From Nitrospirota bacterium (GTDB lineage Bacteria > Nitrospirota > UBA9217): DNA of 64,000 nucleotides. Under the pieces are notes generated by a model that searched no databases, was not told the origin of the DNA, and saw nothing but the letters and a program-made list of their open reading frames with translations. Positions 2,985 to 23,593 of the stretch are shown one piece after another; positions within the stretch are counted from its first letter, which is position 1; each line of letters begins with the position of its first letter. A program made the position numbers and the translations under genes. Location of the stretch: assembly GCA_021814615.1 (NCBI GenBank), contig JAKAHZ010000001.1, positions 31,178 to 95,177 of the forward strand. The letters are read 5' to 3'.

Positions 2985-3006
2985 TGCGGGAACCGTCAGG
3001 ATTCCG

Positions 3007-3035: not shown

Positions 3036-3095
3036 CTTGGTACCGAAACCGCCCCGATGCGGTTCTGTTCACACTTCAGCATCAAGGGAGACCTC

Positions 3096-3560: not shown

Positions 3561-3582
3561 CCTATCACCCCTGACGGAACAC

Positions 3583-3613
3583 AAAAGGCCCGGAGCAATC
3601 CGGGCCTTTTGTT
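3583..3613. terminator. Rho-independent terminator (bidirectional hairpin)
   Basis: Perfect 12-bp stem 'aaaaggcccgga'/'tccgggcctttt' with 4-nt loop and flanking T/A runs, between convergent genes. Confidence 0.7.
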
Positions 3614-3680
3614 GTCTCGCGTCATTGATTGCAGGTGAAGTTGTTTACACACAGCCCCCGCACAGCACTTTCACAGGACA

Positions 3681-4454: not shown

Positions 4455-4527
4455 GACTTCGACACTATACCACGATCCTTCCGGGTTTTCTGTGTTTTCG
4501 CCCTCCCAAATCCCTTATAATGCATGG

Positions 4528-5520: not shown

Positions 5521-5529
5521 AAACCCCGT

Positions 5530-5702
5530 GCGAAAATCCAGGCATGTGACCGAGTCCGAGTGTTAAACATTTCGGATGTCCGAAGCCCGCAGGGCAAGTT
5601 TCCGAAATGTCCCGAGGACGACCGAACATGCCGTGAAGGATTTTCGCGGGGTGCCGTTCTTTGGCGCCACCTTTCTTCGGGCAAGCAAGAAAGGTGGCTG
5701 GA
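5530..5702. repeat. Copy 1 of ~150-170 bp structured intergenic repeat family (MITE/REP-like)
   Basis: Near-identical to 23197-23375 and 30348-30520 (reverse orientation) and partial 34085-34135; internal stems 'catttcgga...tccgaaatg' and 'gccacctttctt...aagaaaggtggc'. Confidence 0.7.
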
Positions 5703-5871
5703 GTTTTTCTCAGGCTAGCTAATACAGCATAATGTGGTTATAGAGAGATACGCACAGAAAGTCAAAAAAGCCCCTTTATTTCTACCACGAACAATTCACC
5801 CTGCGAAACCACACCAGAATGAGTCTTGCCGGAGCGCTGCAAATAACGCACCCCTTGGAGTATAATGTCCC

Positions 5872-6693
5872 ATGTCCCGGATCGCAAAACCGCTGGAACT
5901 TTTCAAACACCTTCCCCGCACGAACTGCGGCGACTGCAGGATCTCCACCTGTCTCGCCTTTGCCGCGGCGGTCATCAAGGAAGAGAAGCGGCTCGCCGAC
6001 TGCCCGCACCTGGACCGGGATCTCGTCACGAAGCTGGATGGTTCGATCGAGCGGCAGGTTAACCTGGAAACGATCCAGGAGGACCAGCTGCGGGAATTGC
6101 AGGGAAGGATCGCCGGGATCCCGCTCTCCGGTCGTGCTGCAGCCATCGGCGCAACGATGGGCAGCGGGACGCTCGTCGTCAATTGTTTAGGCAGGAACTT
6201 CGAGGTCGATGCGGCGGGAAACGTGCGGTCCCATTGCCACACCCACCCCTGGTTCTCCCTTCCCCTGCTCGACTATATCCTCACGAGCACGGGAGGCGCG
6301 GCCTCGAACCGGTGGGTTCCCTTCCGCGAGCTCACGCACGGCCGAACCTGGCAGCAGCTCTTCGAGCGGCGATGCGAGCGGCCGCTCAAAGAGCTCGCGG
6401 ACAGCCACAGCGAACTCTTCGACGAGCTGACGTCGCTCTTCAGCGCGGCCTCGTCGGACCGTATGTTCGATGCCGATATCTCCGTTCTGCTCCAGCCCCT
6501 TCCCCGCGTGCCCCTGCTGCTTTGCTACTGGAAGCCCGAGGACGGCATGGAATCGAAGCTCCACCTCTTCTTCGACGCTTCCGCCGAGGAGCACCTGCAT
6601 ATCGAGTCGCTCTTCACGCTCGGCACCGGCATGGTGCGCATGTTCGAGAAGATCATGCTGAAGCATACGGACAAGCGCCTGGAGATCCTGTAG
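5872..6693 (+). CDS. Fe-S cluster domain protein (CFeSP/RnfB-type N-terminal Cx2Cx4Cx16C motif; DUF3786-like remainder)
   Basis: 'NCGDCRISTCLAFAAAVIKEEKRLADCPH' matches the 4Fe-4S motif of corrinoid Fe-S protein large subunit / PF04060-type domains. Confidence 0.55.
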   Translation: MSRIAKPLELFKHLPRTNCGDCRISTCLAFAAAVIKEEKRLADCPHLDRDLVTKLDGSIERQVNLETIQEDQLRELQGRIAGIPLSGRAAAIGATMGSGTLVVNCLGRNFEVDAAGNVRSHCHTHPWFSLPLLDYILTSTGGAASNRWVPFRELTHGRTWQQLFERRCERPLKELADSHSELFDELTSLFSAASSDRMFDADISVLLQPLPRVPLLLCYWKPEDGMESKLHLFFDASAEEHLHIESLFTLGTGMVRMFEKIMLKHTDKRLEIL

Positions 6694-6707
6694 AAGTTCC
6701 TGCGGCC

Positions 6708-7217
6708 CTACCACGCGTTCCGGTGAATGCGGCCCGCATCGAACCGGTCGGCGCGCCCGGGATTTTGCGCAGGGTAGCCGAGCGGAACGAGCGAAAGCGG
6801 AACGACCTCGTCGGGCAGATTGAGGAGTTTTCGGATTCCCGCGATGCGCTCGTCGAAGGGATAGATGGCCGTCCAGACCGAGCCCAACCCTTTCGCCGTG
6901 GCCGCGAGCAGCAGGTTCTCCGTCGCCGCGGAACAATCCTGGACCCAGCAGCCCTTGTATTTTTCGAGCCGCAGGTCCCCGCAGACGAGCACCGCCACGG
7001 AAGCGTGCTTCAGCATGGCGGAATAGGGATGGAACGCCGGGATCGCGTCCAGGATCGTGCGTTCCGTGATCACGACGAAGTGCCAGGGCTGCTCATTCCC
7101 CGCCGACGGAGCAGCCATGGCGGCCTTGAGCAGCTCCGCGACCATACTCTCCGACACGGGTTTGGATGTATACAACCGCACGCTCCGCCTGCCCAGGATC
7201 GCGTCAAAGGTATCCAT
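6708..7217 (-). CDS. Nitroreductase family protein
   Basis: 'RRSVRLYTSKPV...APSAGNEQPWHFVVI' FMN-nitroreductase fold motifs. Confidence 0.75.
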   Translation of the reverse strand: MDTFDAILGRRSVRLYTSKPVSESMVAELLKAAMAAPSAGNEQPWHFVVITERTILDAIPAFHPYSAMLKHASVAVLVCGDLRLEKYKGCWVQDCSAATENLLLAATAKGLGSVWTAIYPFDERIAGIRKLLNLPDEVVPLSLVPLGYPAQNPGRADRFDAGRIHRNAW

Positions 7218-7305
7218 GACTCACCGTCCTTTCCATCTTTCTCGACCAAGACATGACTGTTTCCCTTCGTGATCTTCGTGTCCTTCGTGGTAAATCCGTC
7301 CAGAC

Positions 7306-8376
7306 TCACCGGTCCACAAAACACTGCGGGTCGTCGCTCAGAAAATCGCCTGATCCGCGCGCCAGCGCATCGGCATACGCGATCGCCCTGCAGCCCCTGC
7401 ATTCCTCCCAGTGGCCGCAGGAACCGCATTTCCCCGAATATCTGCTTTTGTCGCGCAGTGCCTCGAGCACCGGCGAGGCCGCCCAGAGTTCGCGCAGCGA
7501 ATGGGTCCGCACATTCCCGATCGGCAGGGGCATGCGGCGGCAGGGAACGACCGTTCCGTCGGCAAGCAGCGTGAGACCCGAAACGCCGGCCGAACATCCT
7601 CCCGAGGGAACCCCGCCCGTCCGGTCGCGTTTGCGCCTGCCGGGATGCTTCATCGACCGTTCCCGCCGGTGCGCGGCTGCAACGGGGTCTCCGGTCACAA
7701 TCTCCAGCCCCGGGATGTCGGTGGCGAACAATTCTTCGTACAAGCTCCTGACCTCCGCGGCGGACAGCATCGCCTGTCCCAGGCCCGCCGCTTTTCCCGC
7801 GGGAACAAGCCGGGAGAATCCCAGGCGCTGGGCGCCGATGTGGGAGGCGAAGCGCACGACCTTCTTCATGCTCTTCGCGTTCAGCCGGGACAATGTAACG
7901 TTCAGGGTCACGGGCACACCCGCGTCGAGCAGATGTTCGATGCCGTCCGACGCCCGTTCGAAACTGCCCGGCCCGCGCACCGATTCATGGATCTCCTCGC
8001 ACCCCTCGATGCTCACCTGCGCGCCTTTCACGCCCAGCTCGGCGATCCGGCGGGCGCGTGTGCGGTCGATGAGCGTTCCGTTCGTCAGGAGAAAGGTCTC
8101 GTAGCTCCGCGCATGCAGCAGGCCCAGCACCTGCTCCAGATCCGGCCGCAGGAGCGGTTCGCCGCCGGTGATGTTGAAGCTCGGCTTGATCGAAACGTCA
8201 TAGGCGCGCCGCCAGGCCCCGAACATCTCGTCGATCTCTTCCAAGGTCTCGTTGATTTCCTCAAGGGAAAGCTCGCTTCCCGGCGTGCCGGTCTGATAGC
8301 AATGCGAGCAGGCAAGGTTGCATCGTTCCGTCAGATGCCACTGGATCAGGAAATCATGGGTTTCGGTCACGGACAT
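7306..8376 (-). CDS. Radical SAM enzyme with C-terminal SPASM domain (peptide/protein-modifying maturase family)
   Basis: Radical SAM 'CNLACSHC' (Cx3Cx2C) near N-terminus; SPASM Cys cluster 'GGCSAG...PC...CGSCGHWEECRGC'; likely start MSVTE with GAGGA RBS (alt ATG at 8415). Confidence 0.75.
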   Translation of the reverse strand: MSVTETHDFLIQWHLTERCNLACSHCYQTGTPGSELSLEEINETLEEIDEMFGAWRRAYDVSIKPSFNITGGEPLLRPDLEQVLGLLHARSYETFLLTNGTLIDRTRARRIAELGVKGAQVSIEGCEEIHESVRGPGSFERASDGIEHLLDAGVPVTLNVTLSRLNAKSMKKVVRFASHIGAQRLGFSRLVPAGKAAGLGQAMLSAAEVRSLYEELFATDIPGLEIVTGDPVAAAHRRERSMKHPGRRKRDRTGGVPSGGCSAGVSGLTLLADGTVVPCRRMPLPIGNVRTHSLRELWAASPVLEALRDKSRYSGKCGSCGHWEECRGCRAIAYADALARGSGDFLSDDPQCFVDR

Positions 8377-8476
8377 GTATCTGTTCCTCGTGTGGGCCAT
8401 CGGAAACGCGTGCATGGCTGTCCGCGTCTTACCGGGAAGATATCCTCCGCTGAGAGACTGCGGAATGTTGATGGAC

Positions 8477-8578
8477 TAAACCTATCACGGAGACAGGGAG
8501 ACCCAGAGAAAAGCAATTTGCATATATGATGATTTATTCAGTGTCCTCAGTGTCTCCGTGGTGATAATCGACTTTTCG
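8477..8578. repeat. ~95-nt hairpin element (copy 1 of 2); inverted repeat cacggagacag.../...ctcagtgtctccgtg
   Basis: Near-identical copy at 59603-59705; long imperfect stem flanking an ~60-nt AT-richer loop containing 'gcaatttgcatatatgatgat'. Confidence 0.7.
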
Positions 8579-8685
8579 ACTTCACCCAGGTTGGACGGAA
8601 AAGAAGAGCAGGGTCCCGCGTTTCCGGCCCCTGCTCCTGATGGTGTTGCCGACCGGCAACAAGAGCGTCAGCTCTTTCAACCCTT

Positions 8686-8784
8686 TCATTTCCTGCAGGC
8701 AGACCCTGCGGGCGCGGCTTTCTTGAGGTTTTCCCAGAGCGCCGCCTCCTTGGCAAGGTCCTTCAGGCTCATCGCCTTCTTCAT
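8686..8784 (-). CDS. Candidate 32-aa peptide MKKAMSLKDLAKEAALWENLKKAAPAGSACRK (possible radical-SAM substrate precursor)
   Basis: Unlisted small ORF found by reading the - strand; strong SD GGAGGTGA 6-7 nt upstream of ATG; same strand and upstream of the rSAM/SPASM gene; not in the >=60 aa ORF track. Confidence 0.35.
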   Translation of the reverse strand: MKKAMSLKDLAKEAALWENLKKAAPAGSACRK

Positions 8785-8903
8785 CCTGTCTCACCTCCCG
8801 TCATCGTCGATATGCATCAATGATAACACAAAACGTAAGGCCGTTGCGTCCTCCGGGAAAGCAGTGATTCACCGGCATCTGCATGGTATAGTGCAGGAGC
8901 GGA

Positions 8904-11333
8904 ATGCGATTCCCCTGTCGGAAGCAGCCGCAGGCCATGACCAAAGAACTGAAGCTCATTACCATCGCGCTCCGCGACTTTGCGCTGCCAGTCCCGCGCT
9001 TTGGAAGCATCGAAGCCCTCTCCGGGTACGGCCCTGCTGCGCGCGAAGGACAGGAGATCCACAGCCGCGTTCAGCGGAAGCGCCGGAAAGCCGATCCAGC
9101 CTACGAATCCGAGGTTGCCGTCAGCCACACCTTCGATCGCGGCGGGTACGGATTCCGGATCACGGGCCGCATGGACGGCATCTTTCATCACGACCCCGCG
9201 AAGATCGAGGAGATCAAGACGGGCTTCGCCATCCGTGAGCTGGCGGCGAGGCTTGCAGCAGACCCTTTCAGCCATCCCTACGGCCTTCAGCTCCTCACCT
9301 ACGGCTATATCCACGGGAAGGAGCAGGGACGCATTCCCCTCCTCTCCTTCCATCTCGTCTCGAGCAGGAGCAAAGACGCGCTCGATCTCCCGATCGCCTT
9401 CGATCTTGCCGCCTACGAACGATGGCTCGACGCCAGGCTGAACGAACTGGTTGAGGAGGCGCGGGCAGCGGAAAAGCGGGCGGCCCGGCGCAGAAAGATC
9501 GCGGCGAGTTTCCCCTTTCCCTTCCCGGAATCCCGTCCCGGACAGCGGGAGATGATCGCAACGATCGAAGAAGGGATCCGGCAATCCCAGCCGATGCTCC
9601 TCCAGGCCCCCACCGGCCTGGGCAAGACCGTGGGTGTGCTCTTTCCGGTGCTGCAGGACGCGCTCGACCGGGGCCAGCGCACGGTCTACGTCACCCCGAA
9701 GAACAGCCAGCACGCTGTTGCCGAGGACGCCGTCAACCGGTTCCACGAAGCGGGAGCGAAGATCAAGTCCCTCACCATCACGGCAAAGAGCAAGATCTGC
9801 TTCCAGAACGAACCGCTCTGCGACCCCGCGTACTGTGAATTCGCAGAGGATTACTACGGGAAGGTCCAGCGCGGGAATCTCCTTGGCCTCCTGGCGCGGA
9901 AGCGGCGTCTCACCGCCCGTGCCTTCCGCAGCCTGGGAGAGGAATACGAGGTCTGCCCTTTCGAACTCCAGCTCGACGCAGCCGTCGAGGCCGATCTCAT
10001 CATCTGCGATTACAACTACGTCTTCGCGCCCCGATCCGCCTTCCGCAGAATCGCGGGCATCGGCGTGGATCAGGAGGGCAGGCCGAACCTGGTGATCGAC
10101 GAGTGCCACAACCTCCCATCCCGGGCCATGGACTACTACTCCCCGTCGCTCTCCACCGTCTCGCTCGAACAGCTCCGGCCGGAGCTCCGCGCCCTGGCCG
10201 CTCCCTTCTGCGCGGAAGCGCAATCCCTGCTTAACGAGTGCATCGGCGTGATCGTTGCCTGCAGGCCGGAAAACACAAAAGCTCCGGCGCGGATCGAACC
10301 TCCTGTCGAAGCGTTCCTCGAACAGGACCTTCGGCTGCGCTCTTTCCTTTCCCGGTATCTGGACCGGAAGGAAGAAATCGAGCGGGGCGATCCGGTCCTG
10401 CGGCTGTGCTTTTCCTGGTCCGAGTTCAGCGAAGCGCTCGCCCTTGCCGCCGATGCCGAGTGGAACGAATTCTTTTTCACCTTTCATCCCTCGGACAACG
10501 GAGGGATCGTCAAGATCACCTGCTGCGACGCATCGGCCATGATAGCGGACCGCTACGACGACTACGAGCAGACCGTCGGGTTCTCGGCCACGTTAAAGCC
10601 CTTCGAATACTATGCCCGGCTCTCGGGACTCGATCCCGGCGGGATCAGGACCGCCGAGTTCGCGAGCCCCTTTGACCGGGAGAACCGCAAGCTCCTGATC
10701 ATCCCGCAGGTCTCGACAAAGTACGCGGACCGGGAGCGGAATTACGGGAAAATTGCGGAAGCTGTCGGCAGGATCGCGGCGATCAGGCCGGGCAATTACT
10801 TTGTCTTCTTCCCGAGCTTCGAATTTCTCGACCGGGTATGCGACGCCTTTCCTGCGCCGGAGGGTTTTCGGATCGTCAGGCAGCACCGGGAGATGAAAGC
10901 CGCGGCGGTCGAAGAGGTCCTGGAGACGCTCCGGGAAGGAAAAGGGCCGACCATCGTCTTCGCGGTCCAGGGCGGGAGTTTCGCCGAAGGAGTGGACTAT
11001 CCCGGCCACATGGCCATCGGCGCCTTCGTGATCGGTCCGCCGCTCCCGGTCTTCGACCTCGAGCGCGAGCTCATGCGCGAGTACTACCAGCGGCAGTACC
11101 GGGCGGGATTTGACTATGCCTACGCTATTCCCGCCATGGCCAAGGCGGTCCAGGCAGCGGGCAGGGTGATCCGGTCGGAAACGGACCGCGGACTGATCGT
11201 GCTCATGGACTCCCGGTTCATCGAGCCGGGCTATGCCCGGTCCATGCCGCGCGACTGGTTCGAATCGCACGCTGGCGAGCTGGTGTCGGAGAGCATTTTA
11301 CAGGAAGTGAAGGAGTTCTGGGAGAGAGGATAA
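8904..11333 (+). CDS. RecB-family PD-(D/E)xK nuclease domain fused to Rad3/XPD/DinG-type Fe-S helicase
   Basis: N-terminal 'GRMDGIF...IEEIKTG' (D...ExK) and 'QLLTY' (QhxxY) nuclease motifs; Walker A 'APTGLGKT', DEAH 'VIDECHNL', four Cys 'CFQNEPLCDPAYCEF...CPF' Fe-S insertion; start may be ATG 8937. Confidence 0.75.
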   Translation: MRFPCRKQPQAMTKELKLITIALRDFALPVPRFGSIEALSGYGPAAREGQEIHSRVQRKRRKADPAYESEVAVSHTFDRGGYGFRITGRMDGIFHHDPAKIEEIKTGFAIRELAARLAADPFSHPYGLQLLTYGYIHGKEQGRIPLLSFHLVSSRSKDALDLPIAFDLAAYERWLDARLNELVEEARAAEKRAARRRKIAASFPFPFPESRPGQREMIATIEEGIRQSQPMLLQAPTGLGKTVGVLFPVLQDALDRGQRTVYVTPKNSQHAVAEDAVNRFHEAGAKIKSLTITAKSKICFQNEPLCDPAYCEFAEDYYGKVQRGNLLGLLARKRRLTARAFRSLGEEYEVCPFELQLDAAVEADLIICDYNYVFAPRSAFRRIAGIGVDQEGRPNLVIDECHNLPSRAMDYYSPSLSTVSLEQLRPELRALAAPFCAEAQSLLNECIGVIVACRPENTKAPARIEPPVEAFLEQDLRLRSFLSRYLDRKEEIERGDPVLRLCFSWSEFSEALALAADAEWNEFFFTFHPSDNGGIVKITCCDASAMIADRYDDYEQTVGFSATLKPFEYYARLSGLDPGGIRTAEFASPFDRENRKLLIIPQVSTKYADRERNYGKIAEAVGRIAAIRPGNYFVFFPSFEFLDRVCDAFPAPEGFRIVRQHREMKAAAVEEVLETLREGKGPTIVFAVQGGSFAEGVDYPGHMAIGAFVIGPPLPVFDLERELMREYYQRQYRAGFDYAYAIPAMAKAVQAAGRVIRSETDRGLIVLMDSRFIEPGYARSMPRDWFESHAGELVSESILQEVKEFWERG

Positions 11334-13907: not shown

Positions 13908-16403
13908 ATGAAACGAAAGATCATCATATCCCTGCTCCTCCTGTTCCTGCTGTCCGCTTCCGGCGGGGTGCTGGCAACATACTACATTGCTGATACCACC
14001 ACGACGCTCAGCCGCCTCATCACCCTCCATCAGATCGAAGACCTGCGCCAGAACCTGATCATGTCCATCCAGACGGTTCAGTCCGATCTGTACACGATCC
14101 ATACGCGCATGGGCCACAAACTCGACACCATCGTTGACAACGTGAACAAGCTGGATGCCGACGCGATGACCTGCAGCGGCTGCCATCATGTGCCGGAGGT
14201 CGCGGCGGACATCAAGCAGGTCCAGGACCTCGTCGACGAGTATCAGAATTCGCTCAGCTACTATATCACCGTTTCTGCGAACAAGCGCCTGATCGACCGG
14301 TACCAGTTCGACGCCGCGAATATCGGCAACCAGCTTCTGGAGGAAACAGGAGCCATGTCCGCCAGGGCAAGCAAACGCCTGGAGCGAACGACCAAAGAGG
14401 TTATGGTGAGGATCCGCCAGGCCCAGTTCATCCTTGGTTTCACGATCATCGCCACCCTCCTCCTGGGCGCGGTCGTCGCGTTCCATCTCATCCGTTCGGT
14501 CAGCCGGCCCATTCAGGCCCTGGTGAACGCCACCCGCGTCATCGCCATGGGAGACCTGGGCCACACGGTCCAGACCGACGACCGAACGGAGTTCGGCGAG
14601 CTGGTGAACCACTTCAACCACATGAGCGGCGCGCTCAAGGAGAACTACGAGGAGCTGACCGAGGAGATCAAGGAGCGCAGGCAGGCGGAAAAAGCGCTCC
14701 GGGAGAGCGAAGAACGGTATGCCCTCGCCGCGCAGGGCGCCAACGACGGCCTGTGGGACTGGGACATCTCGAAGAACGACATTCACTACTCGTCGCGGTG
14801 GAAGACCATGCTGGGGTACGGCGAGACCGAGCTCGGCAACCAGCTCGATGACTGGTTTGATCTCATTCACGATGACGACCGGGAAACGGTGAAAACGAAG
14901 CTGCTTGCCCATATCGACGGCCATTCCGCCCAGTTCGAGGCAGAATACCGCATACGGCACAAGAGCGGCGCCTACCGGTGGGTGCTGGCCCGGGGCGTGG
15001 CCGTTCGCGACGAGTCAGCGAAAGCCTACCGCATGGCCGGCTCCCAGACCGACATCACGCCCCGCAAGGACGCCGAGGCCCAGCTCATCCACGACGCCTT
15101 CCACGATTCGCTCACGCAGCTGCCTAACCGGGCGCTCTTCATGGACCGCCTGGAGCATGTCATCGATACGACCCGGCGTCATACCGGGCATCTCTACGCC
15201 GTCCTGTTCATCGATCTCGACCGCTTCAAGGTCGTGAACGACAGCATGGGTCACCCCGTGGGCGACGCCCTCCTGATCGAGGTGAGCCGACGCCTGAAGG
15301 AAACCCTCCGCCCCGGCGATACCGTCGCCCGGCTGGGCGGCGACGAGTTCTCGGTCCTGCTCGAGGATCTTCTGAGCCCCGAGGATATCCGCGAGGTCGC
15401 CGAACGGATCCTGCACATGCTCTCCGATCCCTATATCATCCAGAAGCAGGAGCTGATCATCACGCCCAGCATCGGCATTGCGGTCAAATCGCCGAACTAC
15501 GACAAGCCCGAGCAGATCCTGCGCGACGCCGACATCGCCATGTACCAGGCAAAGACCAAGGGCCGGGCGCGCTACGAATTTTTCGACGCCGACATGCTGG
15601 CCACGATCCTGGACCGCCTCCAGCTCGAGGGCGACCTCCGCATCGCCGTCGAGCATCACGCCGGCATGATGCTGCACTACCAGCCCATCATGGCCCCCCG
15701 GAACAGCCGCCTCATCGGCTTCGAAGCGCTCGTCCGGTGGAACCATCCCAAGCGAGGCATGATCTATCCGCTGGAGTTCATCCCGCTGGCAGAGGAAACC
15801 GGCATCATCATGCCCTTGAGCGACTGGATCCTCGAGGAGGCCGTCAAACAGCTCGAGGCATGGCAGCGCCTCTTCCCGGCGGACCCGCCGCTCACCATGA
15901 GCATGAACATCTCGAGCCGCCAGTTCCTGCAGCCCGGCTTCGTCGACAAGGTGCGCAAGGTGCTGAAGCGTCACTCGATCCCGGACGGATCGTTCGCCAT
16001 CGAGATCACGGAGAGCGTGCTCATGGAGCAGTCGGAAGCGGCCGTTCAGACCATCGAGCAGCTCCGGGACATGCACGTGCAGATCCACATCGACGATTTC
16101 GGCACCGGCTACTCGTCGCTCAGCTATCTGCACAATTTCCCGGTGAACGCCCTCAAGATCGACCGGTCCTTCATCGAAAAGATCTCCGGCAACAACGACA
16201 ACCTGGAGATCATCCGTGCAATCATGGCTCTCGCCCAGAGCCTCAATCTCGAAGTGATCGCCGAGGGCGTGGAGAAGGACCACCAGCTGTCGGTCATCAC
16301 GGACATGGACTGCAAATACTGCCAGGGCTTCTTCTTTTCCAAACCCCTCTCCCCGGAAGCGCTGGAGCAGTGGATCCGGTCCGACACAAAGTATCTCTCC
16401 TGA
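13908..16403 (+). CDS. Membrane signalling protein: HAMP-PAS-GGDEF-EAL (diguanylate cyclase/phosphodiesterase)
   Basis: TM + HAMP, PAS ('NDGLWDWDI'), 'RLGGDEFSVLL' GGDEF, 'FEALVRW' EAL and 'QGFFFSKP' motifs. Confidence 0.85.
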   Translation: MKRKIIISLLLLFLLSASGGVLATYYIADTTTTLSRLITLHQIEDLRQNLIMSIQTVQSDLYTIHTRMGHKLDTIVDNVNKLDADAMTCSGCHHVPEVAADIKQVQDLVDEYQNSLSYYITVSANKRLIDRYQFDAANIGNQLLEETGAMSARASKRLERTTKEVMVRIRQAQFILGFTIIATLLLGAVVAFHLIRSVSRPIQALVNATRVIAMGDLGHTVQTDDRTEFGELVNHFNHMSGALKENYEELTEEIKERRQAEKALRESEERYALAAQGANDGLWDWDISKNDIHYSSRWKTMLGYGETELGNQLDDWFDLIHDDDRETVKTKLLAHIDGHSAQFEAEYRIRHKSGAYRWVLARGVAVRDESAKAYRMAGSQTDITPRKDAEAQLIHDAFHDSLTQLPNRALFMDRLEHVIDTTRRHTGHLYAVLFIDLDRFKVVNDSMGHPVGDALLIEVSRRLKETLRPGDTVARLGGDEFSVLLEDLLSPEDIREVAERILHMLSDPYIIQKQELIITPSIGIAVKSPNYDKPEQILRDADIAMYQAKTKGRARYEFFDADMLATILDRLQLEGDLRIAVEHHAGMMLHYQPIMAPRNSRLIGFEALVRWNHPKRGMIYPLEFIPLAEETGIIMPLSDWILEEAVKQLEAWQRLFPADPPLTMSMNISSRQFLQPGFVDKVRKVLKRHSIPDGSFAIEITESVLMEQSEAAVQTIEQLRDMHVQIHIDDFGTGYSSLSYLHNFPVNALKIDRSFIEKISGNNDNLEIIRAIMALAQSLNLEVIAEGVEKDHQLSVITDMDCKYCQGFFFSKPLSPEALEQWIRSDTKYLS

Positions 16404-16613
16404 CCCATCGACGTTCATCCCCTTCCGTTCGCCTGGCGCCCGATCTTTCCCATCCCCACCCCGGCCCTCCCCTTGCAACCGGCTTCTCCCCCTTCCGCAG
16501 GCAGCTGAAAAAGCCTGGTTTCCTCTCTGCTGTTGATCCTGTTGTGCGACCGTTCACACGGTGGGACGCCGAGCGCTGAAACGTCTTCTTGTGAGGATCG
16601 TCGAAGGGAGACG

Positions 16614-17363
16614 CTACGCAGGATGGTTCGGAAGCGGCACCAGATGCTCGCGAATAAACTCCCGGATGAGTTCCCGGTCCTCCGGCGAGATGGCGACGAA
16701 TTTCATGCCCATGCCGGGTTCCTTATGGGGCCCCTCGCCGAATCCGTAGATATAGAGCACTTGTGCCTGAGCCTTCACGATGTGCTTGGCTATGACGAAG
16801 GTGACGGTATGGCGGGAACCCACAGGTCGGGGATTCAGGGTCTTGATGAAGAGGCCGCTGTCCGAGAGCGCGGTGACAATCTCGGAAGCTCCCTGGCCCG
16901 AGCCGTCCACGGATGCCTTGAGAAAGGCGGTAACGCGCAGGGCCGTGCGGGGCGTCGGTTCCACGGCAGCCTGCACGGCCCGGAACAGCTCCTCGGCAGC
17001 CACGGGTTTGCGCAGGTACCCCGCGCACCCGATCCGGCGGCAGTGGCTCTCGCTGTCGATGTCGCCGAGCCGGGTTTGGATGACCACGGGGATCGAGGCA
17101 AGTTTCTGGTCTTTTCGCATGCGTTCGATCAGTTCGAACCCGCTCTTGCCGGGCAGCTGCAGTTCAGTCACGATGAAATGCGGAATCGCGACGGCAAAAA
17201 ATTCGAGCGCCTCTTCGGCGCTCTTTACCGTCGTGACGGTGTACCCGAAATTCTGCAGCAGCATGCCCGTTTCGTGCACATCCCGGACGTCGCTGTCGAT
17301 GACGAGCACCAGCCGTTTTTTCCGGAGCTCTTCCTCTGATGCATGAGCCTGCTGTTCCGTCAT
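16614..17363 (-). CDS. Response regulator receiver fused to C-terminal PilZ (c-di-GMP-binding) domain
   Basis: Receiver 'LVLVIDSDV...IVTELQLPGKSG'; C-terminal PilZ-like 'GMGMKFVAISPEDRELIREFI'; start chosen at MTEQQ (listed ORF start is GC-rich read-through). Confidence 0.65.
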   Translation of the reverse strand: MTEQQAHASEEELRKKRLVLVIDSDVRDVHETGMLLQNFGYTVTTVKSAEEALEFFAVAIPHFIVTELQLPGKSGFELIERMRKDQKLASIPVVIQTRLGDIDSESHCRRIGCAGYLRKPVAAEELFRAVQAAVEPTPRTALRVTAFLKASVDGSGQGASEIVTALSDSGLFIKTLNPRPVGSRHTVTFVIAKHIVKAQAQVLYIYGFGEGPHKEPGMGMKFVAISPEDRELIREFIREHLVPLPNHPA

Positions 17364-17458
17364 GGTCCCGCTCTCATCCCCTTCGACGCCTCGTTGGCCG
17401 GAGAACGAGCTGCATTCACGGCTTGTTTCGATTATACCAAAGGAAGGGCGGTGCGGCA

Positions 17459-19087
17459 TCAGCGCGGGGAAGGAAGGCCGGTGAACGAGATCCTGTCGCC
17501 CGGCGCAAGGCCGCTGCCGGCCGCGGTCTCGATGACCCATCCGACCGGCCCGCCCGAAGGATAGATCTCGGCGCCGCCCGGCCGGCAATGATCCGCCACC
17601 CCGATCACCATGCCCTGCTGATCCACGAATACGATGTCGATGGGATAGGAAACGCTCGCCATCCAGAACGTTACCTGCTGGGGCGGCCGGAAGAAGAACA
17701 GCGCCGCCTCGTTCTCCCTGAGCCTGCGGAAACCCTGGAGGCCCTGCGCCTTCTCCTCATCGGTCTCGCGCAACAGGACCACGGAGAAGGAGCGCGCGGC
17801 TGCTCCTGCCTTTGCCGGCATCACGGAGATCGCCGGCCGGTCTGCCGCTGCTTCGGCAAGCCTGATCTCTGCGGCAAGCACGAGGATGCCCGCGCCGATG
17901 GTGATCACCGTGACCAGGGCTCCCACGCGGAGGTATTCCAGGAAGCCGATCTCGACCCGCTTCCTGGCCTGCTGCGCCACGATCAAGTTCGCCACGGACC
18001 CGATGAGGGTCAGGTTCCCGGCCAGGGTGCTGCTCATGGCAAGGGTAAGCCACAGGACCCGCTCCCCTCCCAGGGATTCGATGAAGGACTTGAGCAGCAT
18101 GACCGCCGGCACGTTGCTCACCACGTTCGAGAGCGCCGCCGAGAGCACGGAGAGCCCCGCGATCCGGGCAAGGGGCGGCACTCCGGACAGATCGCCTGCC
18201 CAGGCAATGATCTTCCCCGCAAGACCCGACGCCTCCACGCCGCGCATGACGATGAACAGCCCGGCAAAGAACAGCAGCAGGGTCCAGTCCACCCCTTCGA
18301 GCACGCGCTCCGTGCGCACCCCGCCCAAAAGCATCAGCGCGACCCCGCCCGCGGCTGCCGACAGCGAGTACGGAAAGCCCGCCGAAAAGGCGACGAGGAC
18401 CCCGGCGCATACGAGCAGGGAGAGGATGAGCAGCCTGCGGTCGACTACGGGCGCCGGAACAGTCGGCTGGTGGTCGAACCGGGTCTTGGCCAGGTCACCG
18501 CGATAGATGAGCCGGATCACGGCGATGCTGACCACGAGCCCGATCGCGGCCACCGGAACAAGGGCGGCGAAAAACGGGAGGTAGGGCACGCGGGAATAGA
18601 TCCCGATCAGCATGTTCTGCGGATTGCCGGTTATGGTCATGACGCTCCCGATGTTCGACGACGTGGCGAGCGCAAGCAGGTAGGGCATCGGATTGACCCG
18701 CAGCTGCAGCGCAACCTCGAGCACAATGGGCGTGAAAAGCAGGCAGATGGTGTCGTTCACGAAGAGCGCCGAGAGCACCGCCGAGGAAAGCGAGACGAGG
18801 GTGAGCAGCTGCAGCGGCGTGCGGGAATGGGTGATGATCCTGCCTGCCATGAGCTCGAAGAACCCGGCGATCCGGAGATAGACCGTGATGACCATCATGC
18901 CGAAGAGGAGCAGGAGGGTGTGCAGGTCCACGGCGGCAAACGCCTCGTCCAGCGTCAGGACGCCGGTAACGACCATCAGCACCGCGCCGACGAGCGCGCC
19001 CGCCGGGCGGTCGATGTGCACCCGCGGGATCTGGCGGAGGCCGATGAACAGGTAGGTGATGAGGAAGATGACGGTCGCAGTCAGCAC
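17459..19087 (-). CDS. ArsB/NhaD-superfamily anion permease fused to C-terminal DUF192 domain
   Basis: ~12 TM helices with permease motifs; C-terminal 'LFFFRPPQQVTFWMASVSYPIDIVFVDQQGMVIGV' is canonical DUF192/COG1430; GTG start. Confidence 0.65.
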   Translation of the reverse strand: MLTATVIFLITYLFIGLRQIPRVHIDRPAGALVGAVLMVVTGVLTLDEAFAAVDLHTLLLLFGMMVITVYLRIAGFFELMAGRIITHSRTPLQLLTLVSLSSAVLSALFVNDTICLLFTPIVLEVALQLRVNPMPYLLALATSSNIGSVMTITGNPQNMLIGIYSRVPYLPFFAALVPVAAIGLVVSIAVIRLIYRGDLAKTRFDHQPTVPAPVVDRRLLILSLLVCAGVLVAFSAGFPYSLSAAAGGVALMLLGGVRTERVLEGVDWTLLLFFAGLFIVMRGVEASGLAGKIIAWAGDLSGVPPLARIAGLSVLSAALSNVVSNVPAVMLLKSFIESLGGERVLWLTLAMSSTLAGNLTLIGSVANLIVAQQARKRVEIGFLEYLRVGALVTVITIGAGILVLAAEIRLAEAAADRPAISVMPAKAGAAARSFSVVLLRETDEEKAQGLQGFRRLRENEAALFFFRPPQQVTFWMASVSYPIDIVFVDQQGMVIGVADHCRPGGAEIYPSGGPVGWVIETAAGSGLAPGDRISFTGLPSPR

Positions 19088-19211
19088 AGGGGCAGTCTAC
19101 CATGGCCGGAACCGGGAGTCCAGCGCGAGCAAGGCCGCATTCCCTGTTTCCTTCTTCGGCCCGGCATGCTATACTTTGGGTGCGTTGCCATCCCCTTCGA
19201 GGAGCGTATCG

Positions 19212-19577
19212 ATGATCGAACGCAGGGGTGAAAAGATCGGCTGGACCGGCGGCTTTCTCGGCGGCTTCCTCTGGGTGCTGGTCCTCTCCCTCATCGCCCT
19301 TGCCCAGGGGAGACTCCTTTCGGGAACGATCGGACTTCTGCTCTTCCTCGTGGCGGTCGCATCGGTCATCATTTTCGCTCCCTGGCGCCATCCCGACGCA
19401 CGCTATCACCTCCTGATGACACCGATCTTCCTGGTCCTGGTTCTCTCCGTCCTCTGGGCATACTCGCTCTTCGCCGGCGGGCTCGGACCGTGGTGGTCCC
19501 TGCCCCTCGTAATCCTTGTATTCGCCATATTCTGCCAGATGCGCGGCAAGAGGTGGAGCGACTCCGGAGCGCGCTGA
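19212..19577 (+). CDS. Small integral membrane protein (3-4 TM), hypothetical
   Basis: RBS GGAG before ATG 19212; hydrophobic helices; stop 4 nt before next gene. Confidence 0.45.
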   Translation: MIERRGEKIGWTGGFLGGFLWVLVLSLIALAQGRLLSGTIGLLLFLVAVASVIIFAPWRHPDARYHLLMTPIFLVLVLSVLWAYSLFAGGLGPWWSLPLVILVFAIFCQMRGKRWSDSGAR

Positions 19578-19580
19578 TCT

Positions 19581-20063
19581 ATGCGATCCTTGACGCTCCT
19601 GCATGCATTGGTCCTTCCCCTGCTGTTCCTTTCGGCTGTTGATGCGGATCAGAAGGCGGCTGGTACGGTCCTTCGCGATTTCACAAGCGACGGATGCAGC
19701 CTCTTCCCCGACGGCACGCTCAGGGACCGGGCGAAGTGGTGCAGCTGCTGCCTGGAGCATGATATCGCCTACTGGCGCGGGGGAACCGGGAAAGAACGGA
19801 AGCAGGCGGATGAGGCGCTCCGCGACTGCGTGCGCGAACGGACCGGCGACCAAGCGCTCGCGGAAACCATGTACGTCGGCGTGCGCGCCGGCGGCCATCC
19901 CGCCTTTCCCACGTGGTACCGCTGGGGCTACGGCTGGGACTACGGGAGAGGCTACAAACCGCTGACGGAAAGCGAGCGGCAGTCAGGGGAAGCGAAGATC
20001 AGGGAATACTACGAAAAACATCCTGCCGGGTATTGCGCGGAAAAACATACACAACAGGAATAG
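19581..20063 (+). CDS. Secreted protein with phospholipase A2-like CC-x2-HD-x2-Y motif
   Basis: Signal peptide; 'CSLFPDG...WCSCCLEHDIAYW' resembles PLA2 catalytic His-Asp network motif (CCxxHDxxY). Confidence 0.4.
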   Translation: MRSLTLLHALVLPLLFLSAVDADQKAAGTVLRDFTSDGCSLFPDGTLRDRAKWCSCCLEHDIAYWRGGTGKERKQADEALRDCVRERTGDQALAETMYVGVRAGGHPAFPTWYRWGYGWDYGRGYKPLTESERQSGEAKIREYYEKHPAGYCAEKHTQQE

Positions 20064-20256
20064 ATCATTGGACACGGGTTTGCGCGGATCAGATCTGATG
20101 AAAGCTTCGATCTATTACTGATCTATCCGCTTTTATCAAAGCCTTATCCGCCTTGATCCGTGTCAAAAGTCTTTCGTCAATTCCTTTGAGCTCGGATTTA
20201 CACCGATAATATCTGGTGAAAGCCATAACGTCCAAGTGGGTGAAAGGAGCCTGACC

Positions 20257-20823
20257 ATGAGAAAGCTCGGTTCCCTGGCACTGCTCTTCGTCATGTTCTG
20301 GGTGTTCCCGTCAGTTGCTGCGGAAAAGAAGGAACGGCCGGAAAAGTGGGCGCGGCCGGTGAAGGCGGAATTCCTGCGGAACTGTTTTCAGCTGGACAAC
20401 AAGGTCTACCGTGCGGCGCAGCCCGCAAAGAAAGGGTTCCTGGAACTGCGTCAGCTGGGCGTGACGGACGTGCTGAACCTGAGGGACTTTCATTCCGACG
20501 ACGAGGACGCGAACGGGGCGGGGCTGAACCTCCATCGCGTCAAGATGGAGGCCGGCGATATCGAGACCGCGAGCGTGGTCAAGGCGCTCCGGGTCATCAG
20601 GAATGCGGAAGGCCCGGTGGTGATCCACTGCTGGCATGGCGCCGACCGCACCGGCATGGTCGCCGCGTTCTACCGCATCCTGTTCCAGAGCTGGTCCAAG
20701 GAAGATGCCATCGACGAGCTCGTGAACGGAGGGTACGGATATCACGCGATCTACAAGAACATCCCCGAATTCATCAGGAGCGCGGATATCGAGGAATTAC
20801 GAAGACAGATTTCGACGCCGTAA
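20257..20823 (+). CDS. Secreted dual-specificity/tyrosine protein phosphatase
   Basis: Signal peptide; P-loop 'VIHCWHGADRTG' (HCx5R); RBS AAAGGAG. Confidence 0.75.
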   Translation: MRKLGSLALLFVMFWVFPSVAAEKKERPEKWARPVKAEFLRNCFQLDNKVYRAAQPAKKGFLELRQLGVTDVLNLRDFHSDDEDANGAGLNLHRVKMEAGDIETASVVKALRVIRNAEGPVVIHCWHGADRTGMVAAFYRILFQSWSKEDAIDELVNGGYGYHAIYKNIPEFIRSADIEELRRQISTP

Positions 20824-20878
20824 CACCGGGGTGGCGCGTTGCCGCCCCTCGCGAGGTAGGGCCCGTCGGGTTTCAGTT

Positions 20879-21244
20879 CTACTGGCTGCCTGTCTTGAGC
20901 TTGATGACTTCCTTGGTCTTCAGATCCAAGGAATAATATTCATCCTTTTCGGTGGTGATAATAAGCTTCTCATTCTTTATCGTCAGATTCGTTATAAAAA
21001 CATCTTGAACGTCCTTCTCGAGCAACGGATTGATCCGCGCCTCATAGATCCTCTTTTCCCATAGTTTCTTTCCTGTAGTATTATCGAAGGCAACAACGTG
21101 CCCCATCTGCGACACAGGCGCCTCGTACCGTACGCCGCTATACACAACAGGATCAACATCTCGCGGCGCAGCACGTTTTGCCGAAGCGGGAAGAGCCGCA
21201 ATAAGAACGATGAGGATTGAAACTTTAAGTATTCTTGCGCTCAT
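20879..21244 (-). CDS. Small secreted hypothetical protein (low-GC insert)
   Basis: Signal peptide 'ILIVLIAALPASA'; local GC ~42% versus ~65% surroundings. Confidence 0.45.
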   Translation of the reverse strand: MSARILKVSILIVLIAALPASAKRAAPRDVDPVVYSGVRYEAPVSQMGHVVAFDNTTGKKLWEKRIYEARINPLLEKDVQDVFITNLTIKNEKLIITTEKDEYYSLDLKTKEVIKLKTGSQ

Positions 21245-21265
21245 GTTTTAGCATCCTGTCGGGTT

Positions 21266-21667
21266 TCACTTCGTTCTCCCCGACCTACGACCTGAGGTTA
21301 ATAGCGTTATTCTAGCTTTGCTCGAAACAATCCTTATCTTATTAGCGCAGGCTCTGTCATGGCCATAAAGTCTGAACGTATATTCATGAAATCGACGCCC
21401 GGAAACGATTACTTCTTTGTGTAGTATCCGATCAATTGAACCTGCCCAGAGATTGTCTTTGACCCCATTAAAATCGATCTGCTTGTTAACATTTTGCACA
21501 TTGTCAAATTCGGCTCTGACTTTTCTTCTCTTAGCACCCCAAACGAGACCGGGATATATTTCTGCTTCTATAGATATTTTTGTCTTATCTTTCTTCGTAA
21601 GTGGGTAAACATAGCTAACCCTAATGATATTACCATCGTGCCAATATGGCGTTGATATCAATTCCAT
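21266..21667 (-). CDS. Hypothetical protein (low-GC insert)
   Basis: ORF in AT-rich segment tandem with 20879-21244; start taken at MELISTPYW. Confidence 0.4.
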   Translation of the reverse strand: MELISTPYWHDGNIIRVSYVYPLTKKDKTKISIEAEIYPGLVWGAKRRKVRAEFDNVQNVNKQIDFNGVKDNLWAGSIDRILHKEVIVSGRRFHEYTFRLYGHDRACANKIRIVSSKARITLLTSGRRSGRTK

Positions 21668-21689
21668 GATCGCGAGCAGTCGCTCCCTT

Positions 21690-22751
21690 CTATTTTTTAC
21701 TTTCTTCCATCCTCTCCAGCAGCTTGAACTGCACCCGCGCCCGATGCAGGTTGTGGCCGGGGTAGCGGATGCGGAAATAGGTGTCCCCGCGGAGATAATC
21801 AGCAAGGAACCGGATGCCGAGCTCGAAGGTGATCACCTGGATGGAGAGCGGCAGCAGCTCGATCTCGCGCTTTGTCAGGAACGATCCGGCGGTTTCGAGA
21901 TATCCCGCTTTGATCGTTTCATACAATCCGGCGTCGAAGCGGACCGCGTCCAGATCCGGCGCATCCTCTCCTTCCGGATTGGCCGCCGACCGCACGCAGT
22001 CGCCGAAATCGAAATGCACGATCCCTGGCTTGACCGTGTCCAGGTCGACCATGCAGATCGCCTTGCCGGTTCCCTTGTGCACCATCACGTTGTTCACCTT
22101 GGGATCGTTGTGCACCACGCGCAGCGGGATTTCTCCGGTTGCGATGTGGTCGGTCAACGCTGTTGCCAGTGATCGGCGGCGGTAGACGAATTCGCGTTCC
22201 GCCATGATTTCGCGCGAACGGTTCTTCGGATCGGTTCGGAGCGCCTGGTCGAATTCGTCAAGATACCGGCCGGTGTAATGGAACCCGGGCAAGGTGTCGT
22301 GCAATTGGTCAGGATGGAGATCGGAAAGGAGTTCCTGGAAGGACCCCAGCGCCCGTCCGATCTCGAAGGCGTGTTGCTCTCCCTGCACCGTGTCGAAGAC
22401 CTCGCCGGATTCGATGAAATGGAACATGCGCCAGTAATCGCCCTTCCCGTCGACAAGATAGGTCTTGCCGTCCCTTGTCCGGAGCAAGGCAGGCGTTGTA
22501 TTCTCGGGATCGGGGATGCCCGCCCTGCGCAGCCGCTCCTGCACATGGGTGGTCACGGTCTCCACATTCGCCATCACCTGCTTGGGATGCAGGAACACGT
22601 GCTGATTGATCCGCTGGAGAATGTATTTCCTGACGCCGGCGTCGGACGCGATCTCGCAGAGATAGGTTTCGTTGATCAGGCCTGAGCCGAACCGCTCGGC
22701 GCGCTGGAGCGTGCCGGGAAGGGAGAAGTGCCTGATGATCCGCTCTTGCAT
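21690..22751 (-). CDS. Phosphotransferase (APH/choline-kinase fold; possibly sugar 1-kinase)
   Basis: Catalytic loop 'VVHNDPKVNNVM' (HxDxxxxN) and 'MVDLD' metal-binding motif. Confidence 0.6.
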   Translation of the reverse strand: MQERIIRHFSLPGTLQRAERFGSGLINETYLCEIASDAGVRKYILQRINQHVFLHPKQVMANVETVTTHVQERLRRAGIPDPENTTPALLRTRDGKTYLVDGKGDYWRMFHFIESGEVFDTVQGEQHAFEIGRALGSFQELLSDLHPDQLHDTLPGFHYTGRYLDEFDQALRTDPKNRSREIMAEREFVYRRRSLATALTDHIATGEIPLRVVHNDPKVNNVMVHKGTGKAICMVDLDTVKPGIVHFDFGDCVRSAANPEGEDAPDLDAVRFDAGLYETIKAGYLETAGSFLTKREIELLPLSIQVITFELGIRFLADYLRGDTYFRIRYPGHNLHRARVQFKLLERMEESKK

Positions 22752-23196
22752 GATGGGAGCATTGTACTGATTCGCGAGTGGATTAGCAAGGCGGGCGATG
22801 GGGCTTGAACCGCGAAGAAAATGAAGGAGCGGATCAACAGCCTCTTACCGCGAAGGCGCAAAGGACGCGAAGAACTGCAGGTCTTCCGCCGTTTTTTCCG
22901 GTTTTACTCGCGTTCATCCGTGTTCATCCGCGTCCTATTGCTTTCTTCTGACGTTTATTCCGGTTTTTATCCGTGTCCATCCGTGTGCGTCCGTGTCCAA
23001 ATGATTTTAGTTTTATCCGCTCTTATCCGCGTTCATCCGCGTCCAAACTAATGGGATCTGTGTTTCGGCTTTTGCGCTCTCTCTGTGCTCTCTGTGTCCT
23101 CTGTGGCAAATTCCGTAGTTGTTTGTTTTGATCCGCGTTCATCGGCGTCCCAAGCCGACTTTGAGTCCTCGCGTCTTCGTGGTAAAGGAGTTGGTT

Positions 23197-23375
23197 CCTC
23201 ACCTTTCTTGCGTGCCCAAGAAAGGTTGAGCCAAAGAAGGGCACCCGGCGATCATTCTGATCCGTCATGCTCGGTCGTCCTCAGGGCATTTCGGAAACTC
23301 GCCCTGCGGGCTTCGGACATCCGAAATGCTTTTCCTTCGGACTCTGTCGCCTGACGGGAATAATCGCATGGGAAC
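23197..23375. repeat. Copy 2 of ~150-170 bp structured intergenic repeat family
   Basis: Aligns with 30348-30520 and reverse complement of 5530-5702. Confidence 0.7.
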
Positions 23376-23593
23376 GGTAGTCAACGGCAAAGGCTCGTCG
23401 TTGGCTGGATTGATCCGCCGTTATCCGCATTCATCCGCGTCCAAAAATCTTCCTGTTTTTTCGTATCTCTGTTTTGTTTTCCCTCTGTGCTCTCTGTGTC
23501 CTCTGTGGCAAATTCCGTAGTTGTTTGTTTTGATCCGCGTTCATCCGCGGCCCAAGCCGACTTTGCGTCTTCGCGTCTTCGTGGCAACGTTCT

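Follow-up and report, generated by a model that had tools for sequence, protein, structure and literature searches.

Two AT-rich genes outside a recognisable integron in a Nitrospirota bacterium, probably acquired from an integron cassette pool

Background

Fragment-sized propeller proteins can assemble into closed rings, as the two-blade trimeric lectin RSL does. In the field of interbacterial defence, Ross et al. reportedly described in 2019 the acquired interbacterial defence (AID) systems of Bacteroidales. The immunity protein PIM7 plugs the active site of the DNase toxin PT7 (PDB 8owu chain E; bioRxiv 10.1101/2021.10.19.465003). Integron cassettes also occur outside integrons, as lone cassettes, single-attC elements or CALIN as defined by IntegronFinder (PMC9024848), and CALIN elements have already been reported in Nitrospira.

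Here we describe two small genes, A and B, in a 64-kb stretch of DNA from an uncultured Nitrospirota bacterium (the window), and compare them with these systems. An original prediction had read the two genes as a low-GC insert, recently acquired by horizontal transfer and possibly coding for a toxin/immunity or effector pair.

Results

The AT-rich segment and its two genes

In a sliding GC analysis the segment at 20830-21700 has a GC content of 0.452, compared with 0.608 for the whole window. This is the lowest value of all 871-bp windows in the 64 kb (z = -4.2), and the 0.16% of 871-bp windows that are as low all overlap the segment. The fall at the edges is abrupt, with a GC content of 0.597 in the kinase flank and 0.599 in the phosphatase flank. 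The predicted AT-rich drop is therefore real at 45% GC, and as sharp as had been claimed, but the background lies at about 61% and not at the ~65% originally given. Since the 55 bp between gene A and the phosphatase gene (20824-20878) are 73% GC, the AT-rich part proper runs from about 20879 to 21705.

The segment is filled by genes A and B, which are found in tandem on the minus strand. They code for proteins of 121 aa (with a signal peptide) and 133 aa and agree with the two small tandem ORFs, one with a signal peptide, that had been noticed before. Both are real genes, because each has conserved homologues. Their GC3 is 0.53 (A) and 0.38 (B) against 0.81 (sd 0.08) in 49 host ORFs, a deficit of 3.6 and 5.5 sd respectively, so that the codon usage deviates along with the GC content.

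Low GC could also be a property of genes that are native and old, caused by their amino-acid composition or by a local mutational bias. K, N, I and Y are indeed abundant in both proteins, and two further public assemblies of the same organism carry the identical arrangement. But with 99.96-99.99% identity to the window these assemblies represent the same population and not independent cases, while the deviant GC3 means that there is a bias in codon choice and not in amino-acid content alone. Moreover, A and B are missing from all related loci sampled, and their families are extremely sparse and cross phyla. We consider a native origin highly improbable.

Flanking host genes and transcription

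Upstream of B, at a distance of 22 nt and in the same direction, lies a gene for an APH-family phosphotransferase (21690..22751, minus strand; PF01636, E 1.6e-19). About 55 Nitrospirota MAGs have an orthologue of it, with identities of 55-67%. On the other side, A is convergent with a gene whose Pfam matches indicate a secreted DSP/PTP-type phosphatase (20236..20823, plus strand). The phosphatase is part of an ArsB/CitMHS - p160 - phosphatase block that is conserved in the relatives L069-L079 and L100. In about 55 Nitrospirota species no copy of A or B lies less than 6 kb from the kinase orthologue, and in about 10 relatives there is none next to the phosphatase. This absence near the flank orthologues in about 65 related loci is what the predicted acquisition would lead one to expect. 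The kinase and phosphatase blocks are never adjacent elsewhere in the sampled relatives. We infer an insertion of A and B at this junction from comparison with the closest sampled relatives, which reach at most 67% identity by the kinase and 63% by the phosphatase and whose synteny with the window is already broken.

A promoter-like site is found upstream of the kinase (22761-22789, minus strand), and none was found between the kinase and B. The gap from the kinase stop to B is 22 nt and that from the B stop to A is 21 nt, and going by the sequence B and A probably depend on the kinase promoter. Between the convergent A and phosphatase genes there is an imperfect hairpin of 74% GC (20818..20860, minus strand), which is predicted to be, and likely is, a bidirectional terminator.

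Gene A codes for a secreted two-blade propeller protein

Gene A (20879-21244, minus strand) codes for a secreted protein with an N-terminal signal peptide (MSARILKVSILIVLIAALPASA, followed by KRAAP) and a mature domain of about 95 aa. The mature protein consists of two four-stranded blades of the PQQ/BamB-type beta-propeller, and these carry the motif G-x-V-x-A-x-D-x-x-T-G-K-x-L-W, so that both the PQQ-type repeat fold and its motif are present. With two blades only, it falls short of a closed 6-8-blade propeller. Searches of Pfam, NCBIfam, PADLOC and PHROGs gave sub-threshold PQQ/BamB matches only (PQQ_2, 21 bits against a cut-off of 27.6; BamB NF008351, 26 bits against 423), and no toxin or enzyme signature. 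A would be periplasmic, and with two blades it would need oligomerisation or docking onto a partner to form a closed propeller. Such a protein probably serves for binding, and not as an enzyme or toxin.

The family is small, with 18 relatives among 5.8 billion proteins. Part of it is host-like in composition and sits in VWA/rhodanese operons, and the A family is therefore not exclusively cassette-borne.

Gene B resembles the immunity protein PIM7

Gene B (21266..21667, minus strand) codes for a cytoplasmic, basic (pI 10.2) and beta-rich protein of the unannotated 'WHDGNI' family. Its length of 133 aa follows from the ATG that lines up with the starts of the homologues. Residues 1-123 (21299-21667, minus strand) form the conserved core, and residues 124-133 (21269-21298, minus strand) are a read-through tail that is missing from the homologues. 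We found 3 close homologues, 5 matches in 1.84 billion representatives, and 34 relatives by profile in 5.8 billion proteins. The A and B families are sparse and span phyla, and one member comes from the gammaproteobacterium Arenicella.

Neither the single sequence nor profiles of 9 and 32 members gave a Pfam, NCBIfam or PDB-sequence match, which places B outside the immunity families described there. The original prediction that A and B belong to no recognisable family thus holds for their sequences, but not for their folds, which are a two-blade propeller and a PIM7-like fold. The predicted model of B, built on a 9-sequence alignment, is of moderate confidence (pLDDT 76.5), and in a fold search it resembles the solved immunity protein PIM7. 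The only other strong match is an uncharacterised Neisseria protein. A literature search on PDB 5v77 found nothing of use.

The mechanism that we prefer, tentatively, is that B might be an orphan immunity-type binder which neutralises an incoming toxin domain. In favour of it are the strong fold matches, limited as they are to PIM7 and the Neisseria protein, and a conserved Asp that falls between the N-terminal helix and strand 1, in the loop where the key Asp17 of PIM7 has been described, although this correspondence is by secondary-structure order only. It is also quite conceivable, if short of probable, that B came from a cassette but has another role than immunity: it could be an anti-phage factor, of which integron cassettes have lately yielded examples, a small enzyme, or a protein that binds a ligand or nucleic acid. 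Every one of the 32 family members carries the polar motifs WHDGNI and DN..AGS unchanged, despite a flip in net charge between a pI of about 10 and about 4.8, and an invariant WHDGNI is unlike a fast-evolving interface. The fold match to PIM7 is at a mere 10% sequence identity. In addition, no toxin domain adjoins the B homologues in any locus examined (L001, L003, L107, L108, L109 and L110), and the gene upstream of B in the window is a conserved housekeeping-type APH-family kinase without a toxin domain. Against a role other than immunity stand, besides the fold matches and the Asp, the PADLOC and PHROGs searches, which gave no match for B.

A and B are unlikely to be a functional pair

The two genes adjoin and are co-directional, one product is secreted and the other cytoplasmic, and B has a fold like an immunity protein. 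These features agree with the predicted toxin/immunity or effector/immunity pair that was acquired together. However, A is a two-blade BamB/PQQ fragment that shows no sign of a toxin, and the gene order is wrong, as a polymorphic-toxin module has the toxin gene first and then the immunity gene, while here B is upstream of A and the kinase upstream of both. Nor would a toxin acting outside the cytoplasm call for an immunity protein inside it. Members of the two families are never found together: by tblastn on all fetched loci, 0 of the 12 B loci hold A and 0 of the 10 A loci hold B, the organism's own loci apart. The spacer between the genes is GC-richer and contains an R''-like box, which suggests separate cassettes. 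Taken together this suggests that A and B are independent cassettes and not a functional pair. We regard the pair as very unlikely, and the immunity-like fold of B is the one part of that prediction to survive.

Some relatives of both genes lie in integron cassette arrays

Homologues of both A and B occur as cassettes in attC arrays. The B homologue P0029 is found in an array of a Nitrospiraceae MAG (L107) with at least 12 attC sites, which form 58-nt hairpins with AAC...GTT ends and show compensatory changes at 8 pairs. A covariance model (R1) was built from 8 of the L107 sites and covers this one attC type only. With R1, 12 sites are recovered in L107, a single one in L003 and the two strongest of those in L066, and on 710 kb of control loci it finds only the duplicates L067/L068 and one further site (L072).

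In L003/L004 the neighbours of the B homologue are HigB/HTH and MazE/PemK modules, and an attC of the L107 type is present there. Sites read by eye as canonical R''/R' flank the B homologues of L110 and L109. In L108 the homologue is a lone gene of 37% GC in a host of 57% GC, followed by half an attC. Thus attC sites are seen in 5 lineages of the B family with usable flanks (L107, L003/L004, L110/L111, L109 and L108), and L001 alone is without one. For the A family attC arrays are found in L066/L067/L068, and the homologue P0008, from the subgroup nearest to the A of the window (62-69% identity), is in an array with attC sites of the L107 type (E 1e-10 and 2e-9). The site in L072, a related genome, follows a different, lone low-GC cassette that lies directly downstream of the same phosphatase gene. 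An integron integrase was seen in none of the loci, which cover 64 kb here and 12-kb pieces of the homologue contigs.

Possible remnants of recombination sites in the window

Directly after the last conserved codon of B lies the box TTAACCT (21295..21301, minus strand). It matches TAACCT, the R''-proximal consensus of the attC sites behind B homologues (compared with L107, L108 and L072). The homologues have their stop codon within this box, while in the window the TAA has become TTA, and B therefore reads through into the tail of 10 aa. On sequence grounds the box is a lead towards an R''-like attC remnant, and it gives no significant hit with R1.

An 18-nt direct repeat (GAASTGAAACCCGACRGG) brackets gene A with a period of 393 bp. 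Copy 1 (GAAGTGAAACCCGACAGG; 21255..21272, minus strand) contains the TGA stop codon of B, and copy 2 (GAACTGAAACCCGACGGG; 20862..20879, minus strand) begins at the last base of the A stop and is in the same frame as copy 1. There are just two copies in the 64 kb, and their local alignment has a z of 6-7, with 0 of 300 shuffles doing as well.

Over the whole window the best R1 hit with filters off has an E of 0.3, and R1 found no intact attC at the 3' end of the window ORFs. The hairpin at 20818..20860 aligns with R1 from end to end, but not significantly (4.9 bits, E 1.7 in 941 nt). The spacers around A and B and this hairpin fold no better than shuffles, and the spacers have no sequence similarity to the attC sites of the homologues. 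A scan by R''/R' regular expressions and folding gave dozens of matches in coding DNA and was dropped as unspecific. Near the segment no tRNA, Rfam family, integrase or transposase was found. Searches for mobile vehicles also came back empty: neither A nor B had a tblastn match in plasmids, B had none in phages, and both were missing from the viral contigs scanned.

Could the genes have come from an AT-rich donor unrelated to integrons, by illegitimate or microhomology-mediated recombination? The 18-nt repeat, which brackets A exactly, would then be a scar, and the cassette context of the relatives incidental. The lack of hits to attC, integrase, tRNA and transposase in or near the segment favours this route, as do the A-family members that are ordinary operon genes. 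But five lineages of the B family show attC and only L001 does not, the A subgroup nearest to the window is in an attC array, B ends exactly at a TAACCT box as its cassette-borne homologues do, and in the L072 relative a lone cassette with an attC adjoins the gene for the same phosphatase. This makes a route outside integrons unlikely, though less so than a native origin.

Discussion

Horizontal acquisition of A and B, as originally predicted, is well supported by their deviant codons, the rarity of their families, their absence near the flank orthologues and the presence of relatives in cassette arrays. As to the source, we think it probable that they are accessory genes from a Nitrospirota-type integron cassette pool, now found outside a recognisable integron. 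Two cassette-derived genes would have settled where two conserved blocks of host genes meet. Their attC sites would then have decayed, leaving the 18-nt repeat around A and the box TTAACCT where the core of B ends, and the loss of the stop in the box may have given B its tail. Transcription would most likely start from the kinase promoter and end at the GC-rich hairpin, which would serve the convergent phosphatase gene as well. B, with its PIM7-like fold, might neutralise an incoming toxin, and A would probably act as a binding module in the periplasm.

A bolder proposal, which we offer as a long shot, is that the 'WHDGNI' family might be an undescribed orphan immunity family on integron cassettes with a PIM7-like fold. 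Nitrospirota-type pools would then be stores of interbacterial-defence genes, and single cassettes out of them would become fixed at ordinary chromosomal sites, and the 18-nt repeat would mark an insertion route independent of attC.

The locus indicates that a small compositional island can be traced to an integron cassette pool even when its recombination sites have eroded. It also provides a first structural handle on two unannotated families, namely a PIM7-like fold (34 members in 5.8 billion proteins) and a natural two-blade propeller. If B is an immunity protein, environmental phyla would have in their integron cassettes a stock of defences against contact-dependent toxins. If it is not, A and B are a case of ordinary accessory-gene gain.

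When we compare A with BamB/PQQ propellers (PDB 2yms), the blade type and motif are the same, but A is a natural stand-alone secreted protein of 95 aa that scores far under the BamB threshold. PIM7 is the immunity protein of an LXG-associated DNase toxin, PT7, in Bacillus cereus, whereas the host of B belongs to another phylum. B also differs from PIM7 in having no profile match, in its low identity and in that no gene for PT7 or another toxin adjoins it. Furthermore, the B of the window is strongly basic, whereas the toxin-binding face of PIM7 is acidic. Like lone cassettes, single-attC elements and CALINs, A and B are small, promoterless, co-oriented ORFs that are AT-richer than their host. 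They differ from CALIN-type elements in lacking a detectable attC, in having almost no intergenic space and in having no integrase nearby. In comparison with the AID systems, B is a single gene and not an array, its vehicle appears to be a cassette pool and not an integrative element, and its protection is predicted. What B shares with AID systems and other orphan immunity genes is that it is an immunity-like gene without a cognate toxin, acquired and patchy in its distribution.

Composition and genomic position

The compositional island in this window is real. The segment 20830-21700 has 45.2% GC, the minimum among all 871-bp windows (z = -4.2), and its GC profile and GC3 values confirm the low-GC two-gene stretch of the original prediction; the background had been put at ~65% GC and is about 61% (window mean 60.8%). 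Two tandem ORFs fill the segment, gene A (20879-21244, 121 aa, with a clear signal peptide) and gene B (21266-21667, 133 aa from an ATG aligned with the start of its homologues). Two small tandem ORFs, one of them with a signal peptide, had been expected here, and only their strand had to be corrected to minus. GC3 is 0.53 in A and 0.38 in B versus 0.81 (sd 0.08) in 49 host ORFs, so the deviation is one of codon choice and not of amino-acid content alone. The neighbouring genes have a host-like composition: an APH-family phosphotransferase, here called the kinase (21690-22751, 59.7% GC), lies upstream of B and a DSP/PTP-type phosphatase (20236-20823, 59.9% GC) is convergent with A.

Two public contigs, GCA_027425635.1 DAIBVG010000376.1 and one ENA metagenome contig, share this arrangement and are 99.96-99.99% identical to window positions 15050-22557. 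In the gene calls of GCA_027425635.1 (888-1679 of the locus) B is uncalled and A is cut to a 75-aa fragment, which means that both proteins are effectively missing from the protein databases for this species. Kinase orthologues of 55-67% identity occur in about 55 uncultured Nitrospirota species, identifying the host as a Nitrospirota bacterium, and in the loci of these species neither A, B nor the phosphatase block was found within 6 kb of the kinase orthologue. About 10 metagenomic relatives conserve the pairing of the phosphatase with the preceding 160-aa gene, accompanied once by an ArsB/CitMHS transporter as in the window, and in none of these relatives is A, B or the kinase found beside the phosphatase. 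A and B occupy the exact junction of two conserved host blocks which are adjacent nowhere else. No available relative is close enough to offer a true empty site, so we can only infer that the two genes were inserted at this junction.

Other features of the flanks deserve mention. The transporter of the window (17459-19087, minus strand) is of CitMHS/ArsB type and fused to a C-terminal DUF192 domain, a fusion kept at 66% identity in one relative. A 172-nt spacer of 43% GC (20064-20235) separates the phosphatase from the 160-aa gene, whereas in relatives these two genes abut. Within the spacer are inverted repeats of 25-26 nt and a direct repeat of 38 nt whose copies (20068-20105 and 20186-20223) are 74% identical; it could be regulatory, or a small element that was inserted here. 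Upstream of the kinase, at 22890-23590, we observed a 116-nt repeat whose copies (23070-23185 and 23472-23587) are 92% identical, together with a ~53-nt unit rich in ATCCGCGTTCATCCGCGTCC that occurs five times; these look like a dispersed intergenic repeat family.

Cassette arrays around the relatives

The main new evidence comes from the genomic context of the relatives. The B homologue P0029 is found on contig CAYUSP010000003.1, of the same assembly as a Nitrospiraceae MAG that the kinase search recovered, among small co-oriented ORFs spaced by a ~58-nt repeat, TAACCTGGCGCTCGACAGCGACGCGCC...GGCGCGTCAGCGCCGCGTTA. Eight copies of the repeat align as a hairpin that ends in AAC...GTT and has compensatory changes in 8 pairs, and this anatomy is that of integron attC sites. 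A covariance model built from these eight copies, R1, recovers 12 sites in the same locus. In the array of the A homologue P0008 it finds two strong ones (E 1e-10 and 2e-9), and in that of the B homologue P0003, whose neighbours are HigB/HTH and MazE/PemK modules, one (E 6e-10). The P0029 locus (427938-440303 of the contig) has an integron-type array at about 800-9150, in which at least 12 attC sites share a single sequence type; no integrase was found within the 12 kb covered. Two further B homologues are flanked by R''/R' pairs read by eye, for example CACTAAC...GTTAAGTG, and another stands alone, at 37% GC where its genome has 57%, with half an attC behind it.

On 710 kb of control loci R1 found, apart from duplicates of the P0008 array, just a single site, which is in a relative with the pair of 160-aa gene and phosphatase. 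There, a ~850-nt segment of 43% GC directly follows the phosphatase stop (2346-3200) and gives way to GC-rich host sequence; it holds one 154-aa membrane ORF and an R1-type attC. A different lone cassette has thus landed beside the same phosphatase gene in a related organism, and the site could be a recurrent landing place for cassettes.

Across the window itself R1 gives nothing significant (best E 0.3, outside the A/B segment); in a local search its top match, of 4.9 bits, is a GC-rich hairpin at 20818-20860. The spacers of A and B fold no better than shuffles, so no attC, the defining feature of a cassette, is recognisable at the window copies. Two remnants are visible. The first is an apparent R''-like box after B: TTAACCT (21301-21295) directly follows the last conserved codon and matches the TAACCT that opens the attC behind B homologues, whose stop codon sits there. 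In the window that stop TAA is now TTA, and B is extended by 10 codons. The second is an 18-nt direct repeat, GAAsTGAAACCCGACrGG, with exactly two copies in the 64 kb. One copy lies at the 3' end of B and the other at that of A, both in one reading frame, so that they bracket A; their period is 393 bp. The two copies match each other better than shuffles do by 6-7 sd, and the repeat is not found at the loci of A or B homologues. It could be a duplication from the insertion of A, or the shared 3' flank of two cassettes.

Horizontal acquisition, as originally proposed, stands, and we regard it as fairly likely that A and B derive from Nitrospirota-type integron cassettes and were stranded without a functional attC.

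Rarity and expression

B homologues are rare: 3 in 5.8 billion clustered proteins, 5 when 1.84 billion representatives were scanned exhaustively with HMMER, and 34 when a profile was used. One member comes from a cultured gammaproteobacterium, Arenicella chitinivorans. The 18 A homologues are all small secreted metagenome proteins. Neither protein matched plasmids or viral contigs, B had no match in phage records, and nothing above threshold was found for either in Pfam, NCBIfam, PADLOC or PHROGs.

The gaps from kinase stop to B start and from B stop to A start are 22 and 21 nt. The sole promoter-like site in the right orientation is upstream of the kinase, and a GC-rich hairpin 3' of A is common to A and the convergent phosphatase gene. 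Co-transcription of A and B with the kinase would be the simplest reading.

Fold and possible function

The model of A (pLDDT 84.6) has eight strands forming two four-stranded blades. BamB chains rank top in Foldseek (E 1e-5), in agreement with weak PQQ_2/BamB sequence matches. As modelled, A corresponds to two blades of a PQQ/BamB-type propeller, secreted as a protein in its own right, and probably serves as a periplasmic binding module that needs to oligomerise. It groups with an AT-rich, cassette-borne subgroup (62-69% identity). Another subgroup has native GC and lies in VWA-A-rhodanese-VWA operons, where stop codons overlap the next start codons; cassettes are therefore not the only setting of the family. 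The operon layout (VWA protein, A, a 125-aa protein, rhodanese, VWA protein) is seen at L113 (1-3831), L114 and L116 (2-3399), and hints at a conserved envelope function of the two-blade domain. In the cassette array of L066 (661-1493) the A homologue and the next ORF, a 114-aa lipoprotein-like protein absent from the window, appear to be served by a single attC, as in a cassette of two genes.

The original prediction of a toxin/immunity pair does not hold up: the genes are unlinked elsewhere, nothing in A suggests a toxin, and no toxin is adjacent. What this analysis usefully yields is the likely origin from cassettes and a fold assignment for each of the two proteins.

B has a beta-rich predicted fold (pLDDT 76.5). 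An alignment of 32 family members splits in two: B of the window belongs to a basic subgroup (pI about 10, 117-123 aa), the rest form an acidic one (pI about 4.8, 106 aa), and both keep the invariant motifs WHDGNI and DN..AGS. The known protein with which we compare B is PIM7, the immunity protein cognate to PT7, which is a DNase toxin domain associated with LXG. In the crystal structure (bioRxiv 10.1101/2021.10.19.465003) PIM7 occludes the active site by means of an Asp, located in the loop that joins helix 1 to strand A. Three observations count against a simple PIM7-like role: PDB sequence and profile searches show no similarity at all between the two sequences, the strongly basic character of B (pI 10.2) contrasts with the acidic interface of PIM7, and in the B family two polar motifs stay invariant while net charge flips between subgroups. 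From the fold alone, B may be an orphan immunity-type protein, a tentative reading. One likeness to PIM7 is that the invariant WHDGNI of B lies at the place corresponding to the occluding loop, as judged by the order of secondary-structure elements.
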